A DNA stretch of 13,238 nucleotides from positions 1-13,238 of the IMG/VR virus record IMGVR_UViG_2526164633_000018; one strand, given 5' to 3'. This document shows, one piece after another, positions 3,610 to 12,701 of the stretch. Each line of letters starts with the position of its first letter. The first letter of the stretch is position 1. The notes below the pieces were generated by a model. The model did no database searches. It was not told the origin of the DNA and worked only from the letters and a program-made list of their open reading frames with translations. A program made the translations under genes and the position numbers. Source of the stretch: a virus. Taxonomy: Duplodnaviria; Heunggongvirae; Uroviricota; Caudoviricetes.

Positions 3610-3641
3610 TGTCGGGAGGCCGCCCGAAAGGGCGGTAAGAA

Positions 3642-6559: not shown

Positions 6560-6619
6560 TGCTGCGGGTGCTTGAGGCTATCTGCCTCAGGCATGAACAC
6601 CAAAAGGCAGATAGAGAAA

Positions 6620-6690
6620 AGCCCCAGTTAACATTACGCGTCCTGCAAGACGCTTAACATTAATCTGAGGCCCAATCTATGTCTCACAAA
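6620..6690 (-). ncRNA. sok: Putative Sok-like antisense RNA; boundaries approximate
   Basis: On the minus strand there is a promoter-like -35 TTGCCT (complement of 6717-6722), 17-bp spacer and -10 TAACCT (complement of 6694-6699). The transcript would be antisense to the upstream ATG at 6679 and its SD. Inferred from hok/sok locus organisation; ends not determined. Confidence 0.3.
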
Positions 6691-6735
6691 TGTAGGTTAG
6701 CCTCTTACGTGCCGAAAGGCAAGGAGAAGCAGGCT

Positions 6736-6891
6736 ATGAAGCAGCAAAAGGCGATGTTAATCGCCCTGATCGTCATCTGTTTAACCGTCATAGTGACGGC
6801 ACTGGTAACGAGGAAAGACCTCTGCGAGGTACGAATCCGAACCGGCCAGACGGAGGTCGCTGTCTTCACAGCTTACGAACCTGAGGAGTAA
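6736..6891 (+). CDS. hokD: Hok/Gef-family type I toxin (51 aa), HokD/RelF-like
   Basis: Translation MKQQKAMLIALIVICLTVIVTALVTRKDLCEVRIRTGQTEVAVFTAYEPEE matches the Hok family (TM helix plus the conserved periplasmic tail) and, from memory, HokD/RelF specifically. SD aaggagaag lies upstream. The six-frame ORF opens at an upstream in-frame ATG (6679). Confidence 0.85.
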   Translation: MKQQKAMLIALIVICLTVIVTALVTRKDLCEVRIRTGQTEVAVFTAYEPEE

Positions 6892-8399: not shown

Positions 8400-8774
8400 A
8401 TGCTCATAGATTTGGTTTTACCTTACCCGCCAACGGTGAACACCTACTGGCGACGTCGTGGCAGCACATATTTTATCTCGGAGGAGGGAAAGCGTTATCG
8501 CCGGGCTGTGGCGCTTATTGTTCGCCAGCAGCGGCTGAAATTAATCCTGTCCGGAAGGCTGGCGATAAAGGTGATTGCAGAGCCACCGGATAAGCGTCGT
8601 CGCGACCTGGACAATATCCTGAAAGCACCGCTGGATGCGCTGACGCATGCGGGAGTGTTAATGGACGATGAGCAGTTTGATGAAATCAATATCGTTCGTG
8701 GTCAGCCAGTATCTGGTGGACGTCTGGGGGTGAAGATTTACCCCATAATGCTTGAAGGGCAGGTCAAAAAATGA
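8400..8774 (+). CDS. rusA: RusA-family Holliday-junction resolvase (124 aa)
   Basis: ATG 8400 follows SD agaggtg. Motif PDKRRRDLDNILKAPLDALTHAGVLMDDEQ matches the RusA catalytic region (recalled E. coli RusA …PDRRRRDLDNLQKA…). Stop overlaps the next gene start (ATGA at 8771-8774). Confidence 0.85.
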   Translation: MLIDLVLPYPPTVNTYWRRRGSTYFISEEGKRYRRAVALIVRQQRLKLILSGRLAIKVIAEPPDKRRRDLDNILKAPLDALTHAGVLMDDEQFDEINIVRGQPVSGGRLGVKIYPIMLEGQVKK

Positions 8775-9592
8775 AACTGGAAGATTTACCGAAATACTAC
8801 TCCCCAAAATCCCTCGGCCTGACTGATGCATCGGCCTCAACGTCGAAAGATACGCTGAGTATCACTGATGTGATGGCCGCGCAGGGCATGACACAGAATT
8901 GGGCTGAGATGGGGTTTTCTGCGTTCCTTGGGAAAATGGGCATTAGTATGAATGACAGAGAGCGGGCAACAGAATTGCTGACAGAATATGCACTCAGTCG
9001 GTGTGATCGCGTGGCGGCGTTAAGAAAACTCCCGGCAGAAATAAAACCGGCAGTGATGCGTATTATGGCTTCGTATGCGTTTGAAGATTATGCCCGTAGC
9101 GCGGCGAGCAAAAAACAGTGCCCCTGTTGTCACGGAAAAAAATTTATTGAAAGCGAGGTTTTTACAAACAAGATCCAGTATCCGGATGGTAAGCCGCCAG
9201 TGTGGGCAAAGTGCACAAAAGGAGTGTATCCGTCTTACTGGGAGGAATGGAAAAAAGTCAGGGAGGTGGTAAAAGTTGCCTGTCCGGAGTGTGGAGGGAA
9301 GGGAGAGGTATCCACTGCCTGTAAAGATTGTCGTGGGCGCGGTGTTGCCATTCATCGTGAAGAGTCGGTAAAACGTGGTATGCCTGTTATCAGAGACTGC
9401 CAGCGTTGTGGTGGTCGTGGCTATGAAAGATTACCTTCAACGGAGGCATTTAATGCCATATGTAATGTAACCGATGCCATATCTCTTGATACATGGAAAA
9501 AAACAGTTAAACGTTTTTACGATACGCTGGTGGTGCAGTTTGATATTGAAGAAGCATGGGCAGAACAACAACTGAAAAAGGTGACCAGATAG
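8771..9592 (+). CDS. Lambda-type late antiterminator Q (273 aa), longer than lambda Q
   Basis: Collinear with lambda Q as I recall it: SPKS…TDVMAA.GM…YA(F/Y)(E/A)DY.RSAA…Cys-rich zinc motifs…(F/L)YD.LVVQ…VTR at the C-terminus. It is followed immediately by a lambda PR'-like sequence. Confidence 0.85.
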   Translation: MKLEDLPKYYSPKSLGLTDASASTSKDTLSITDVMAAQGMTQNWAEMGFSAFLGKMGISMNDRERATELLTEYALSRCDRVAALRKLPAEIKPAVMRIMASYAFEDYARSAASKKQCPCCHGKKFIESEVFTNKIQYPDGKPPVWAKCTKGVYPSYWEEWKKVREVVKVACPECGGKGEVSTACKDCRGRGVAIHREESVKRGMPVIRDCQRCGGRGYERLPSTEAFNAICNVTDAISLDTWKKTVKRFYDTLVVQFDIEEAWAEQQLKKVTR

Positions 9593-9597
9593 CTTTG

Positions 9598-9633
9598 TTG
9601 ATTTTTCCCGAATCTGTGGTAAATTTGCCCTAA
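9598..9633 (+). promoter_or_regulatory. Late promoter PR' with probable qut / pause-inducing region
   Basis: -35 TTGATT (9598-9603), 16-bp spacer, -10 TAAATT (9620-9625). The segment ggtaaatttgccctaacgatggg closely resembles lambda PR' (ggtaaatttgactcaacgatggg, from memory). Predicted start is about 9632-9633. Confidence 0.6.
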
Positions 9634-9673
9634 CGATGGGCGTTTTATGCCTGACGTTAGAAGATTTTTTACA

Positions 9674-9696
9674 CCCGTCGCCAGGCGGGTTTTTTT
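9674..9696 (+). terminator. tR'-like rho-independent terminator downstream of PR'
   Basis: GC-rich hairpin cccgt / gcggg with a 6-nt loop, followed by T7 (9690-9696). Sits about 60 nt downstream of the predicted PR' start. Confidence 0.5.
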
Positions 9697-9741
9697 ATGA
9701 CTGAAATCACGCCAGTACAGTAAACGCGCTGGTGGTTGTGA

Positions 9742-10192
9742 ATACCGGTCTTTCAGCTTGCTGGCTTTTTCGACAAGAGTTATTGGTGTGTCACGTTAAC
9801 CGGAAAAAGGAAAGTTTGAGAAACGCGATCTGGCACAGGCGGTTATTAATGCTGCCTACCTGGTGGCCTGTGCAGATGGTGAATGTGAGGCTTCCTAGAA
9901 AGCGAAGATCGAACAGGTACTGCGTAATCAGCCTGCGCTGTCCGCGTTTACGTCAGAAATTAATGCGATTAGCGCAACCATTATCGGTCAGCTGGATACG
10001 AACTTTAAAACTGGTCGTCGTGCGGCGTTACGTGAGATCGAGGATGTGAAACACGATACGCGTGAAGCGGAAGATGTGCTGGATGTGGCGGTGGCCATTG
10101 CGGAGGCAGACGGCGAAATTGAGCCGGAAGAGCGCAAGGTGCTGGAAGAGATTGCCGGTGTTCTGGGTCTTCGTCTGGAGAATCACCTGTGA
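9742..10192 (+). pseudogene. Decayed TerB-like (tellurite-resistance TerB / DjlA-N-type) gene with an in-frame amber stop, a frameshift and no start codon
   Basis: Frame 2 reads …DLAQAVINAAYLVACADGECEAS*KAKIEQVL…AVAIAEADGEIEPEERKVLEEIAGVLGLRLENHL, showing two ADG-E…E repeats typical of TerB domains. A TAG at 9896-9898 falls where the second repeat has Glu. Upstream the frame closes at TAA 9797-9799 with no start, and the N-terminal-like segment GFFDKSYW… is in frame 1. Confidence 0.45.
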
Positions 10193-10320
10193 CGGTAAAA
10201 CTGCGCCTGGCTGTGGCTGCACTCCTGCTGTTTCTGGTGGTGATGGTGGATTTCACCAGCAGAATCATGTCGGTGCTGGCGGATGGGGTGCTGGTCTGCG
10301 GCATTGTGGTATTGCTGTAG
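10189..10320 (+). CDS. Possible small membrane protein (43 aa)
   Basis: GTG 10189 overlaps the TerB-like stop (GTGA) and follows SD ggaga (10176-10180). Peptide VTVKLRLAVAALLLFLVVMVDFTSRIMSVLADGVLVCGIVVLL is hydrophobic throughout. Not listed as its own ORF in the six-frame track; expression is uncertain given the upstream pseudogene. Confidence 0.3.
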   Translation: MTVKLRLAVAALLLFLVVMVDFTSRIMSVLADGVLVCGIVVLL

Positions 10321-10516
10321 CCGGTGATAAAAAGAAACAGCCTGCATAATGCTTGATTTTTTTATTTGCTGTTTATTAAAAATACTACTGCATGGTGAAT
10401 CCCCCTGTGCGGAGGGGCAATCAGCAAGTAGGTATATGTGATAATCGCGGATTCAGGTGCTGATACTGAATTCACCGGGAGGCACCCGGCACCATGCAAG
10501 AAAAAGAATGTGCATG

Positions 10517-10548
10517 CAAAAATGCCCCTCTCCGGAGGGGCATTTTTT
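10517..10548 (+). terminator. Strong rho-independent terminator, potentially bidirectional
   Basis: A-tract caaaaat, then 7-bp stem gcccctc / gaggggc with loop tccg, then atttttt. A second hairpin (gcccgaa-tggg-ttcgggc, 10562-10579) preceded by taaaaaa follows and is oriented for the minus strand. Confidence 0.6.
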
Positions 10549-10762
10549 ATGGGTAAAAAATGCCCGAATGGGTTCGGGCAATAGCATGAGATACTGATAT
10601 TGTTGTGTTGTTATCGTGTGGATTTTAACCAGGGTTTATCAGGCTGCGCAACTGCGTGGCCTTCTTCATTTCTTGGGCTGTAGTCCCCGTGTGTCATTCA
10701 GGCTTCCGGACTACAGCCCACTCCATATCTGATTTAATACACTATCCCGGCCGGGAGGAATA

Positions 10763-12616
10763 ATGACATTTAAACATTATGATGTTGTCAGGGCGGCGTC
10801 GCCGTCAGACCTTGCGGAAAAGCTGACACACAAACTGAAAGAGGGCTGGCAGCCGTTTGGTAGTCCGGTGGCCATAACCCCTTATACCCTGATGCAGGCG
10901 ATTACAGCAGAAGGTGATGTGGTGGTCAGTGGTGCAACTGAGCCGGATTGGTACTACGTCATCGTACTGGCCGGGCAGTCCAATGCCATGGCTTACGGTG
11001 AAGGGCTTCCGCTGCCGGATTCATACGATGCTCCGGATCCGCGCATTAAACAGCTGGCGCGCCGCAGTACAGTGACGCCGGGTGGGGCTGCCTGCAGATA
11101 TAACGATATTATTCCGGCCGACCACTGCCTGCATGATGTGCAGGATATGAGTACGCTGAATCATCCGAAGGCAGACCTGAGCAAAGGGCAGTACGGCTGT
11201 GTCGGCCAGGGCTTACATATTGCCAAAAAACTGCTTCCGTATATCCCGAATAACGCGGGGATCCTGCTGGCACCATGCTGTCGTGGTGGTTCGGCATTCA
11301 CCCAGGGCGCGGAGGGGACATTCAGTGCGGACACGGGGGCCAGCCAGGATTCGGCACGCTGGGGTGTGGGTAAACCGTTATATCAGGACCTGATTGCGCG
11401 CACTAAAGCTGCATTACAGAAGAACCCGAAAAATGTGTTGCTGGCGGTGTGCTGGATGCAGGGAGAGTTTGACATGAGCGCCGCCACCTACGCACAGCAA
11501 CCTGCGCTGTTTACAGCCATGCTGAAGCAGTTTCGTGCTGACCTCACTGTGTTTAACGCGCAGTGTCATGGTGGCAGTGCTGCAGATGTGCCGTGGATTT
11601 GTGGTGACACGACGTATTACTGGAAAAATACATACGCTACCCAGTACGACACCGTGTACGGCGGGTATAAAAACAGGGAGAGTGAGGGCGTTTATTTTGT
11701 GCCCTTCATGACAGACGGTAACGGCGTCAATACCGCCACTAACGCGCCGGCAGAAGATCCGGATATTCCGGCATCAGGATATTACGGTGCGGCATCGAGA
11801 ACGAATGGAAACCAGGTATCATCAAACCGCCCGACACATTTCAGTTCATGGGCGCGCAGGAGCATTATTCCGGATCGTCTGGCAACCGCTATTCTGAACG
11901 CAGCCGGGCGCACCTCAGCCTTCATCAGTGGTAAGGCACCGGAAATCAAACCCTCGCCCGGCGGCAACACGCCATCGGGTCCGTCTGCAGATACGTCCGT
12001 TCGCACAATCTCCCTGCTGCCGGCAGCCGGAGAGGCTGCTGCGCAGGGCTGGAGCATTAAGGATGGCGGAATTCAGTTGTCAGATGGTGTATTTAAGATC
12101 ACCAAGCAGAGCAATAAAACCTGGTCCCTGACGCATCCGGTGGATGACGCAATTACCCTGCTGACACAGGGCGGCAGACTGACCTGTAAGTTCCGCCTGT
12201 CAGGCGCACTGACCAACAATCAGTTCGGGCTGGGGATTTATCTGTATACGGATGCTCCCGTTCCTGATGGTGTGGCGATGACGGGTACCGGTAATCCGTT
12301 CCTGATGTCGTACTTCACTCAGACCACTGACGGCAGAGTGAATCTGATGCATCACAGGAAAGCCGGAAACACGAAGCTGGGGGAGTTCGGCGATTACGGT
12401 AACGACTGGCAGACGCTGGAGCTGGTGTTCACCGCCGGCAGTGCCACGGTTACTCCGAAACTGAATGGAGTGGCTGGCCCGGCATTCCAGGTTATAAAAG
12501 ACGGTCTGACACTGGGACTGAATGCGCTGACGCTGACGGATGTTACAAAAAATGCAGCGTATGGCGTTGAGATAGAAAGTCTGGTGCTGGAGATAAATGC
12601 ACCGGCATCATCATAA
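10763..12616 (+). CDS. Prophage sialate O-acetylesterase, NanS-p-like (617 aa): N-terminal DUF1737-like region, SGNH/SASA esterase domain, C-terminal extension
   Basis: ATG 10763 follows SD gggagg. N-terminus MTFKHYDVV…; esterase motif YVIVLAGQSNAMAYGEG (the GQSN block of sialate esterases). Size and position (after Q, before the holin) match nanS-p genes of Stx-type lambdoid phages. Confidence 0.8.
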   Translation: MTFKHYDVVRAASPSDLAEKLTHKLKEGWQPFGSPVAITPYTLMQAITAEGDVVVSGATEPDWYYVIVLAGQSNAMAYGEGLPLPDSYDAPDPRIKQLARRSTVTPGGAACRYNDIIPADHCLHDVQDMSTLNHPKADLSKGQYGCVGQGLHIAKKLLPYIPNNAGILLAPCCRGGSAFTQGAEGTFSADTGASQDSARWGVGKPLYQDLIARTKAALQKNPKNVLLAVCWMQGEFDMSAATYAQQPALFTAMLKQFRADLTVFNAQCHGGSAADVPWICGDTTYYWKNTYATQYDTVYGGYKNRESEGVYFVPFMTDGNGVNTATNAPAEDPDIPASGYYGAASRTNGNQVSSNRPTHFSSWARRSIIPDRLATAILNAAGRTSAFISGKAPEIKPSPGGNTPSGPSADTSVRTISLLPAAGEAAAQGWSIKDGGIQLSDGVFKITKQSNKTWSLTHPVDDAITLLTQGGRLTCKFRLSGALTNNQFGLGIYLYTDAPVPDGVAMTGTGNPFLMSYFTQTTDGRVNLMHHRKAGNTKLGEFGDYGNDWQTLELVFTAGSATVTPKLNGVAGPAFQVIKDGLTLGLNALTLTDVTKNAAYGVEIESLVLEINAPASS

Positions 12617-12701
12617 AAAGTGAGCCAGTCAAATGGAAGGTATCGTTAAACTCACCGGTAGTGTCAGTGGGTCGTCTGAGATGCCTGCATGAGTTATCAG
12701 A

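Follow-up and report, generated by a model that had tools for sequence, protein, structure and literature searches.

A probable non-functional relic of the TerB-family gene tciA in the Q-proximal moron slot of a lambdoid prophage

The window, i.e. the whole stretch of viral DNA that was analysed (13,238 nt, IMG/VR record IMGVR_UViG_2526164633_000018, Caudoviricetes), contains the late antiterminator gene Q and, downstream of it, a leader, the remains of a TerB-like gene, a gene for a small membrane protein, two sRNA genes and an esterase gene. The features of this region are as follows.

8771-9592, + strand: late antiterminator Q, 273 aa (Pfam Antiterm PF03589, E 4.7e-50)
9593-9810, + strand: Q-proximal leader, comprising a putative PR' region, two terminator-like hairpins and a post-terminator leader
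9811-9813, + strand: deletion or illegitimate-recombination junction in A-rich microhomology (AAAAAG-type)
9811-10192, + strand: tciA remnant (TerB family), a pseudogene consisting of the last base of codon 17, codons 18-143 and the stop
9869-9871, + strand: Tyr37Cys substitution (TAT to TGT) directly 5' of the first ADG motif, from alignments
9896-9898, + strand: amber TAG at the conserved Glu46 codon (GAG in intact alleles) in the first ADG-x5-E motif, from alignments
10046-10192, + strand: in-frame ORF of 48 aa opening with GTG and containing the second ADG-x5-E motif, from the ORF list
10189-10320, + strand: tciB, coding for a DUF3927 small membrane protein of 43 aa (Pfam DUF3927, E 6.7e-12)
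10318-10320, + strand: amber in tciB (TGG to TAG, Trp44), giving 43 aa instead of 55
10364-10554, + strand: full-length STnc100-family sRNA gene (Rfam RF02076, 146 bits)
10555-10616, - strand: full-length gene of the anti-GcvB sRNA AgvB (Rfam RF02702, 96.5 bits)
10763-12616, + strand: nanS-p-type sialate O-acetylesterase with DUF1737, SASA and DUF6645 domains (Pfam)

The product of Q is annotated as an antitermination protein in related genomes. The esterase, annotated as a SASA family carbohydrate esterase, marks the downstream boundary of the slot and has a P21-type holin gene on its 3' side. The site between Q/PR'/tR' and the lysis cassette is that of a lambdoid PR'-proximal moron, and its cargo varies among relatives, with stx2 in Stx2_EH1910, intact tciAB in IBS28 and PPyecE, and only iraM in UPEC69. 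A first reading of the letters alone (hereafter the sequence-only reading) had placed a decayed passenger in this slot, 5' of the nanS-p-type esterase and the holin, and our comparisons bear this out. Elsewhere in the window, a hok/sok type I toxin-antitoxin locus is present at 6566-6891 (Rfam Sok, 6566-6741, 121.7 bits; Hok/Gef ORF, 6679-6891).

A megablast search of phage records showed that the same DNA is annotated tciA/tciB ('TciA/TerB-like protein') in JLK-2012, PPyecE_EH1910 and Evi. In all three, tciA is intact (143 codons) and overlaps a tciB of 54-55 codons; these are intact homologues of the kind that the sequence-only reading had proposed to look for. The remnant corresponds to the 3' 382 nt of the gene (9811-10192, + strand) and shares 90-96% nucleotide identity with the three intact alleles. 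Other intact 143-aa homologues with an overlapping tciB are found in strains IBS28 and OkiPb01704 and in phage P1, and tblastn detected full-length TciA homologues in 130 phage records, ranging from P1 (42-51% identity) to Erwinia jumbo phages and Vibrio, Pseudomonas, Klebsiella and Salmonella phages. No complete tciA ORF of ~143 codons with a start was found in the window, where codons 1-17 are gone and codon 46 is a TAG. The feature is already known, as in every genome that we sampled NCBI PGAP labels the remnant a pseudogene ('tellurite resistance TerB family protein', 'internal stop').

In the frame of the codon that starts at 9815, the remnant reads PEKGKFEKRDLAQAVINAAYLVACADGECEAS*KAKIEQ...ADGEIEPEERKVLEEIAGVLGLRLENHL*, with the asterisks marking stops. 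Its 130-residue stop-masked frame matches Pfam TerB (PF05099) with 42.5 bits (E 9.5e-11). This score exceeds the gathering score of 24.4 bits, and the TerB-like frame is therefore real, well beyond chance; a profile search had been named beforehand as a possible refuter of the TerB relationship, and it recovered that relationship. Intact TciA scores 60.2 bits on the same model, matches PHROG 632 'tellurite resistance' (E 1.7e-69) and, in a sequence-level comparison, aligns over residues 14-137 with the solved TerB structure PDB 2JXU_A (E 4.4e-8). It harbours two (A/S)DG-x5-E motifs, ADGECEASE (38-46) and ADGEIEPEE (116-124), that align with SDGNFDDDE of PDB 2JXU. The two ADG...E repeats originally noticed in the remnant are thus those of the intact protein, A38-E46 and A116-E124. 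Glu46, in the first motif, corresponds to Glu124 in the second as well as to the Glu of the 2JXU motif.

The lesions were read from an alignment of the window with the three intact alleles. Homology with tciA begins at 9811, i.e. at nucleotide 51 of the gene, with the ATG and codons 1-17 missing. All intact homologues have GAG at Glu46, where the window has TAG (9896-9898), in line with the earlier claim that an amber codon replaces an expected Glu; TAG is also present at this codon in alleles that retain the 5' end. At the Tyr37Cys site, position 9870 is A in all intact alleles, and Tyr37 is still found in the intermediate allele of CAU16175. The lack of a start codon, claimed as well, also held. 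The stretch from the in-frame TAA at 9797 to the TAG at 9896 offers GTG 9863 as its sole candidate start, which is located 11 codons 5' of the TAG and devoid of a Shine-Dalgarno sequence.

Upstream of the remnant, a terminator scan predicted hairpins at 9626-9642 and at 9673-9690, the latter followed by a T-run and taken as tR'. The assignments of both PR' and tR' in this leader are putative and based on position. The leader (9593-9813) is 99.5% identical to the Q-proximal region of the Stx2a phage Stx2_EH1910, and the alignment that includes the 273-aa Q gene runs from 8701 with 99.4% identity. In Stx2_EH1910, the leader is followed by a 65-aa ORF, a DNA methylase gene, the tRNA genes Ile(CAU)-Arg(UCG)-Arg(UCU) and stx2A. 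In the window, the homology on the left (with Stx2_EH1910 and PPyecE) stops at 9813 and that on the right (with tciA) begins at 9811. The sequence AAAAAG is present at the break in both parental sequences, and the junction thus sits in a short A-rich microhomology.

It was near this point, at 9800-9817, that the sequence-only reading had placed a frame change. We discarded the frameshift, as the alignments show homology that is lost rather than shifted in frame, and what lies there is the deletion or recombination junction. The extent first given to the decayed frame (9742-10192) was right as regards the existence of the frame, but its start was set ~70 nt too far to the left, since the homology runs from 9811. 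The frame-0 ORF upstream, at 9732-10049, has no Pfam match and no likeness to the TciA N-terminus, and none of the ORFs overlapping that region on either strand has a Pfam match.

We estimated the size of the missing segment from related loci. In PPyecE_EH1910, 2,578 bp separate the end of the left arm (locus position 3623) from the start of the right arm (6202), and this gap contains a small ORF, the methylase gene, a RelE/ParE-type toxin-antitoxin pair and the 5' end of tciA. With the methylase-tRNA-tciA layout (IBS28, UPEC69), the missing piece would be ~1.9 kb. Judging from these layouts, the event at the junction appears to have removed codons 1-17 and about 1.9-2.6 kb of upstream DNA, including the small ORF, the DNA methylase gene and the tRNA trio. 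Since the best matches of the left and the right arm come from different phages, a simple deletion and a recombination of two phages are equally likely. The whole window is contiguous in none of 5,426 complete Escherichia coli genomes (best match, 89% coverage and 96.5% identity); the prophage is thus a mosaic that is not represented as such in that collection.

In general terms, the stop and the missing start might be sequencing or assembly errors affecting an intact gene. An 80-nt query corresponding to the junction nevertheless had matches of at least 80% coverage in 477 of the same 5,426 genomes, and a 155-nt query that extends over the TAG as well as the junction was found in 478. The carriers include O157, O145, O26, O103 and O121 strains as well as isolates from a dog and an echidna. 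The deleted allele is thus found in ~478 genomes vs ~448 for copies that retain the 5' end of tciA. Among 15 evenly spaced junction-bearing records, we distinguished two haplotypes over 9771-9925, one 100% identical to the window (7 of 15) and the other 97.4% identical (8 of 15). In the one copy of the second type that was checked, that of strain 86-24, the four differences are at synonymous sites between 9844 and 9856. All junction-bearing copies checked have retained the TAG. The occurrence of identical sequence in many independently sequenced complete genomes, of varied serogroups and hosts, indicates that the lesions are real rather than read errors, and the same TAG recurs in the intermediate alleles. 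We therefore give practically no credence to an intact gene hidden by errors.

The intermediate alleles also bear on the order of events. Strain CAU16175 has kept the tRNA genes and the 5' end of tciA together with Tyr37; its allele harbours the same TAG and a true frameshift, caused by one additional A within the poly-A of codons 6-8. The allele of SMN197SH3 is similar but has Cys37, and the window type combines Cys37, the amber and the deletion. The presence of the amber and the poly-A frameshift in intermediates that keep the 5' end implies that tciA was dead before its 5' end was deleted. We propose that the mutation of GAG to TAG at Glu46 arose together with the extra A in codons 6-8, and that Tyr37Cys would have followed. 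In a third step, a deletion of ~1.9-2.6 kb or an illegitimate recombination at the A-rich microhomology would have joined codon 18 of tciA to the leader at a point just past the Q-dependent late terminator, with the loss of the start codon, codons 1-17, the small winged-helix ORF, the DNA methylase gene and the tRNA trio.

The partner gene appears to have followed. The GTG start of tciB overlaps the tciA stop (GTGA, 10189-10192), and comparison with PHROG 1470 identifies its product as 'TciB-like'. The 55-aa version is encoded in Evi and in O26, O103, E2865 and 86-24 strains. The 43-aa version is confined to a sub-lineage of the junction-bearing copies, represented by the window, O121, the echidna strain and one O157 strain (FDAARGOS_293). 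Since the junction-bearing copies of O26, O103, E2865 and 86-24 keep the 55-aa TciB, the tciB amber arose later still than the tciA deletion. The removal of 12 C-terminal residues by this second amber fits with an erosion of the whole tciA-tciB pair. A Shine-Dalgarno sequence of its own (GGAG, 8 nt 5' of the GTG) has been kept, and tciB may still be translated from it. PGAP treats the 43-aa TciB as an intact protein (WP_001344632.1).

In both genes of the pair the frame is ended by a TAG (9896 in tciA, 10318 in tciB), and phages carry tRNA genes in this slot. These two observations would suit an amber suppressor, provided by the host or by a co-resident phage, that restores part of TciA, as the sequence-only reading had envisaged. 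This idea did not survive the comparisons, as the start codon and codons 1-17 are gone, leaving only GTG 9863 without a Shine-Dalgarno sequence, and suppression could not rescue a protein that has no start codon. Moreover, ARAGORN detected no tRNA gene in the window, and the tRNA genes of eight related loci have the anticodons CAU, UCG, UCU, UUU, GUU and UCC, with no CUA among them. No CUA anticodon loop was evident in the 'tRNA-OTHER' gene of OkiPb01704 either. In addition, the ancestral alleles that bear the amber are also frameshifted. Partial synthesis of TciA by suppression is thus extremely improbable.

Another product to consider is that of the 48-aa ORF at 10046-10192, which might be translated as a half-TerB mini-protein, possibly by coupling to tciB. 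The ORF is open, scores 32.3 bits on Pfam TerB and has a stop that overlaps the tciB start, and the 48-aa PHROG 3920 matches residues 96-143 of TciA, i.e. precisely this ORF (E 7.3e-36). Nevertheless, the members of PHROG 3920 are most simply explained as gene-caller artefacts from pseudogene copies of tciA. The spacing between GTG 10046 and its only Shine-Dalgarno-like motif, GAGG, is poor, at 2 nt, and half of a two-repeat domain is unlikely to fold. The pseudogene clade has also accumulated non-synonymous changes at the 3' end (His to Tyr at 10184 and Leu to Gln at 10188). On these sequence features, the 48-aa ORF is probably not expressed, and we hold a half-TerB mini-protein to be highly improbable.

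The remnant starts about 110 nt (9701-9810) past the strongest terminator-like hairpin after Q (9673-9690 and its T-run). Its position 3' of that hairpin means that its transcription is probably limited to passive inclusion in the late transcript antiterminated by Q. Passive transcription of this kind is the most likely mode in our proposal, and the TerB protein would not be made from the remnant. A more active role could be imagined at the RNA level, with the remnant kept as a leader for tciB, the sRNAs or nanS-p, or as a sponge, given that the region is rich in Hfq-bound prophage sRNAs (PMC4104026) and that the allele is widespread. Against this, we found no Rfam match in 9700-10192 at E values up to 1, no promoter-like site on the + strand in 9500-10800 and no terminator-like site inside 9701-10192, and the predicted folding is no better than that of shuffled sequences (z = -0.86). 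Hitch-hiking on a mobile prophage module also accounts for the spread of the allele. Retention as an RNA element is therefore very unlikely. A search for notable repeats returned none. A link with defence systems was also considered and set aside, as TciB had no match in PADLOC and intact TciA had only a marginal, partial one (PDC-S48, E 0.0035).

The STnc100 and AgvB genes, which separate tciB from the esterase gene, are convergent. This is the order described for O157 prophages, in which a moron CDS is followed by convergent sRNAs and then by a conserved ORF (Tree et al. 2014; PMC4104026). According to a 2026 preprint, PasA/PasC-type sRNAs occupy the interval that separates the sialate esterase from the holin in prophages with RusA, TerB and DUF1627. 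We considered these sRNAs as possible content of the tciA remnant and rejected them, as their place is between the esterase and the holin. The corresponding esterase-holin stretch of the window is 12617-12688. The window encodes RusA in addition to the TerB remnant, and related prophages have an annotated DUF1627 gene in the equivalent region.

Taken together, these data lead us to consider, with a probability of roughly 93%, that 9811-10192 is a non-functional relic of tciA in a lambdoid E. coli prophage, inactivated stepwise and then deleted at its 5' end, that is likely transcribed passively and would yield no TerB protein. It is a known and widely spread pseudogene, real but ordinary. The near-equal frequencies of the deleted and the 5'-retaining alleles (~478 vs ~448 genomes) are a counterpoint, as they might mean that the compact arrangement is selected for and that the decay is not neutral. 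Another is the 48-aa ORF at 10046-10192, which keeps one TerB motif next to the tciB start. We consider it unlikely that the presence of the deleted amber allele in ~9% of complete genomes, of unrelated serogroups, reflects selection and not mere decay. If it did, selection might have acted in lysogens against TciA, the methylase or the tRNAs, or else in favour of a compact layout that brings tciB, STnc100/AgvB and nanS-p nearer to PR', and a residual product, TciB alone or that of the 48-aa half-TerB ORF, might retain function.

As a relic, the locus offers a decay series of a single prophage cargo gene, from nonsense mutation and frameshift through missense mutation and 5' deletion to erosion of the partner gene. 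It also shows that a TerB-like frame and its moron slot can be recognised from raw sequence, and it brings out that one methylase-tRNA module can be followed by tciAB, stxAB or iraM as cargo.

The closest comparison as regards the site is with the stx locus of Stx-converting phages, whose order is Q, PR', methylase, tRNA genes ileZ-argN-argO, stxAB, sRNAs, nanS-p, S and R. The backbone is the same as that of the window, with Q and leader 99.4-99.5% identical in Stx2_EH1910, and convergent sRNA genes similarly separate the moron CDS from the esterase gene. In contrast, the cargo is stxAB rather than tciAB, and the window has lost the methylase and tRNA genes. As at the stx site, the cargo of the intact tciAB relatives is placed after the tRNA-Ile(CAU)-Arg-Arg trio. 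IBS28 and OkiPb01704 have the methylase and the tRNA trio, then intact tciA-tciB, then the esterase and holin genes. The analogy with the slot of Stx phages drawn by the sequence-only reading is borne out, since one and the same tRNA trio stands 5' of stx2A in Stx2_EH1910 and 5' of tciAB where this pair is intact.

UPEC69 has the same Q-methylase-tRNA backbone without tciAB or stxAB, and with iraM on the opposite strand. This anti-adapter gene is located at 10846-11377 of the UPEC69 locus and at 2345-2680 of the IBS28 locus, where tciAB is also present. The middle tRNA of the phage trio varies. Both the Stx2 phage and IBS28 have Arg(UCG), CAU16175 and Evi have Lys(UUU), and the OkiPb01704 gene, 81 nt long and annotated 'tRNA-OTHER' (L018:1107-1187), has a rearranged anticodon arm and is not called by ARAGORN. 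The middle-tRNA sites compared also included L016:1110-1185 and L003:2801-2877.

As regards the genes themselves, the intact lambdoid tciA-tciB pairs are recorded in Evi (VUF53482.1), JLK-2012 (AFB75444.1/AFB75445.1), PPyecE_EH1910 (BCI50129.1) and IBS28 (WP_001380362.1). The window shares with them the homology from codon 18 to the stop, the GTGA overlap and the position 5' of the nanS-p esterase and the holin. It differs from them by the absence of the start and codons 1-17, the Glu46 amber, Tyr37Cys and the reduction of TciB from 55 to 43 aa.

The names tciA and tciB derive from phage P1, whose tciA-tciB-tciC genes include a TerB-family TciA with 42% (mod749::IS5 c1.100, AF234172.1) or 51% (OP279344.1) identity. 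As in the lambdoid pair, tciB is small and overlapping, tRNA genes adjoin the set and a DNA methylase gene is found upstream. P1 differs by a third small gene, tciC, by another promoter context (the ban operon) and by the intactness of its genes. TciA has been described as resembling TerB (PMC9603915), and the P1 tci genes are non-essential, with a function assigned by homology only (PMC10695390). The tellurite-type names in both the P1 and the lambdoid records are likewise given 'by homology' only. The linkage of methylase, tRNA and tciAB genes recurs, as dmt, tRNA-Asn/Thr, tciABC and tRNA-Ile in P1 (AF234172.1, 67733-73155) and as methylase, tRNA-Ile/Arg/Arg or Asn/Thr/Gly, and tciAB in lambdoid prophages. 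This recurrence suggests that they form a shared mobile cargo module.

The TerB protein of the ter operon (terZABCDEF; PDB 2JXU) has the PF05099 domain and paired acidic motifs in common with TciA. In contrast with the ter operon, the context in the window is that of a phage moron devoid of other ter genes. No terZ, terA, terC, terD, terE or terF gene was found beside the remnant, whose neighbours are Q, tciB, the sRNA genes and the esterase gene. On the basis of family knowledge, the ancestral TciA would have been a cytoplasmic, two-repeat, acidic metal-binding TerB domain, probably acting with the small membrane protein TciB at the inner membrane through a putative interaction between the two. 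The second TerB repeat also gives weak profile matches to the N-terminal region of DjlA (E 1e-5) and to YebE/DUF533, which suggests by analogy that the same type of domain might act at the inner membrane. In DjlA and DUF533 proteins, a transmembrane helix is fused to the domain, whereas in tciAB the membrane component is encoded as a separate protein of 55 aa.
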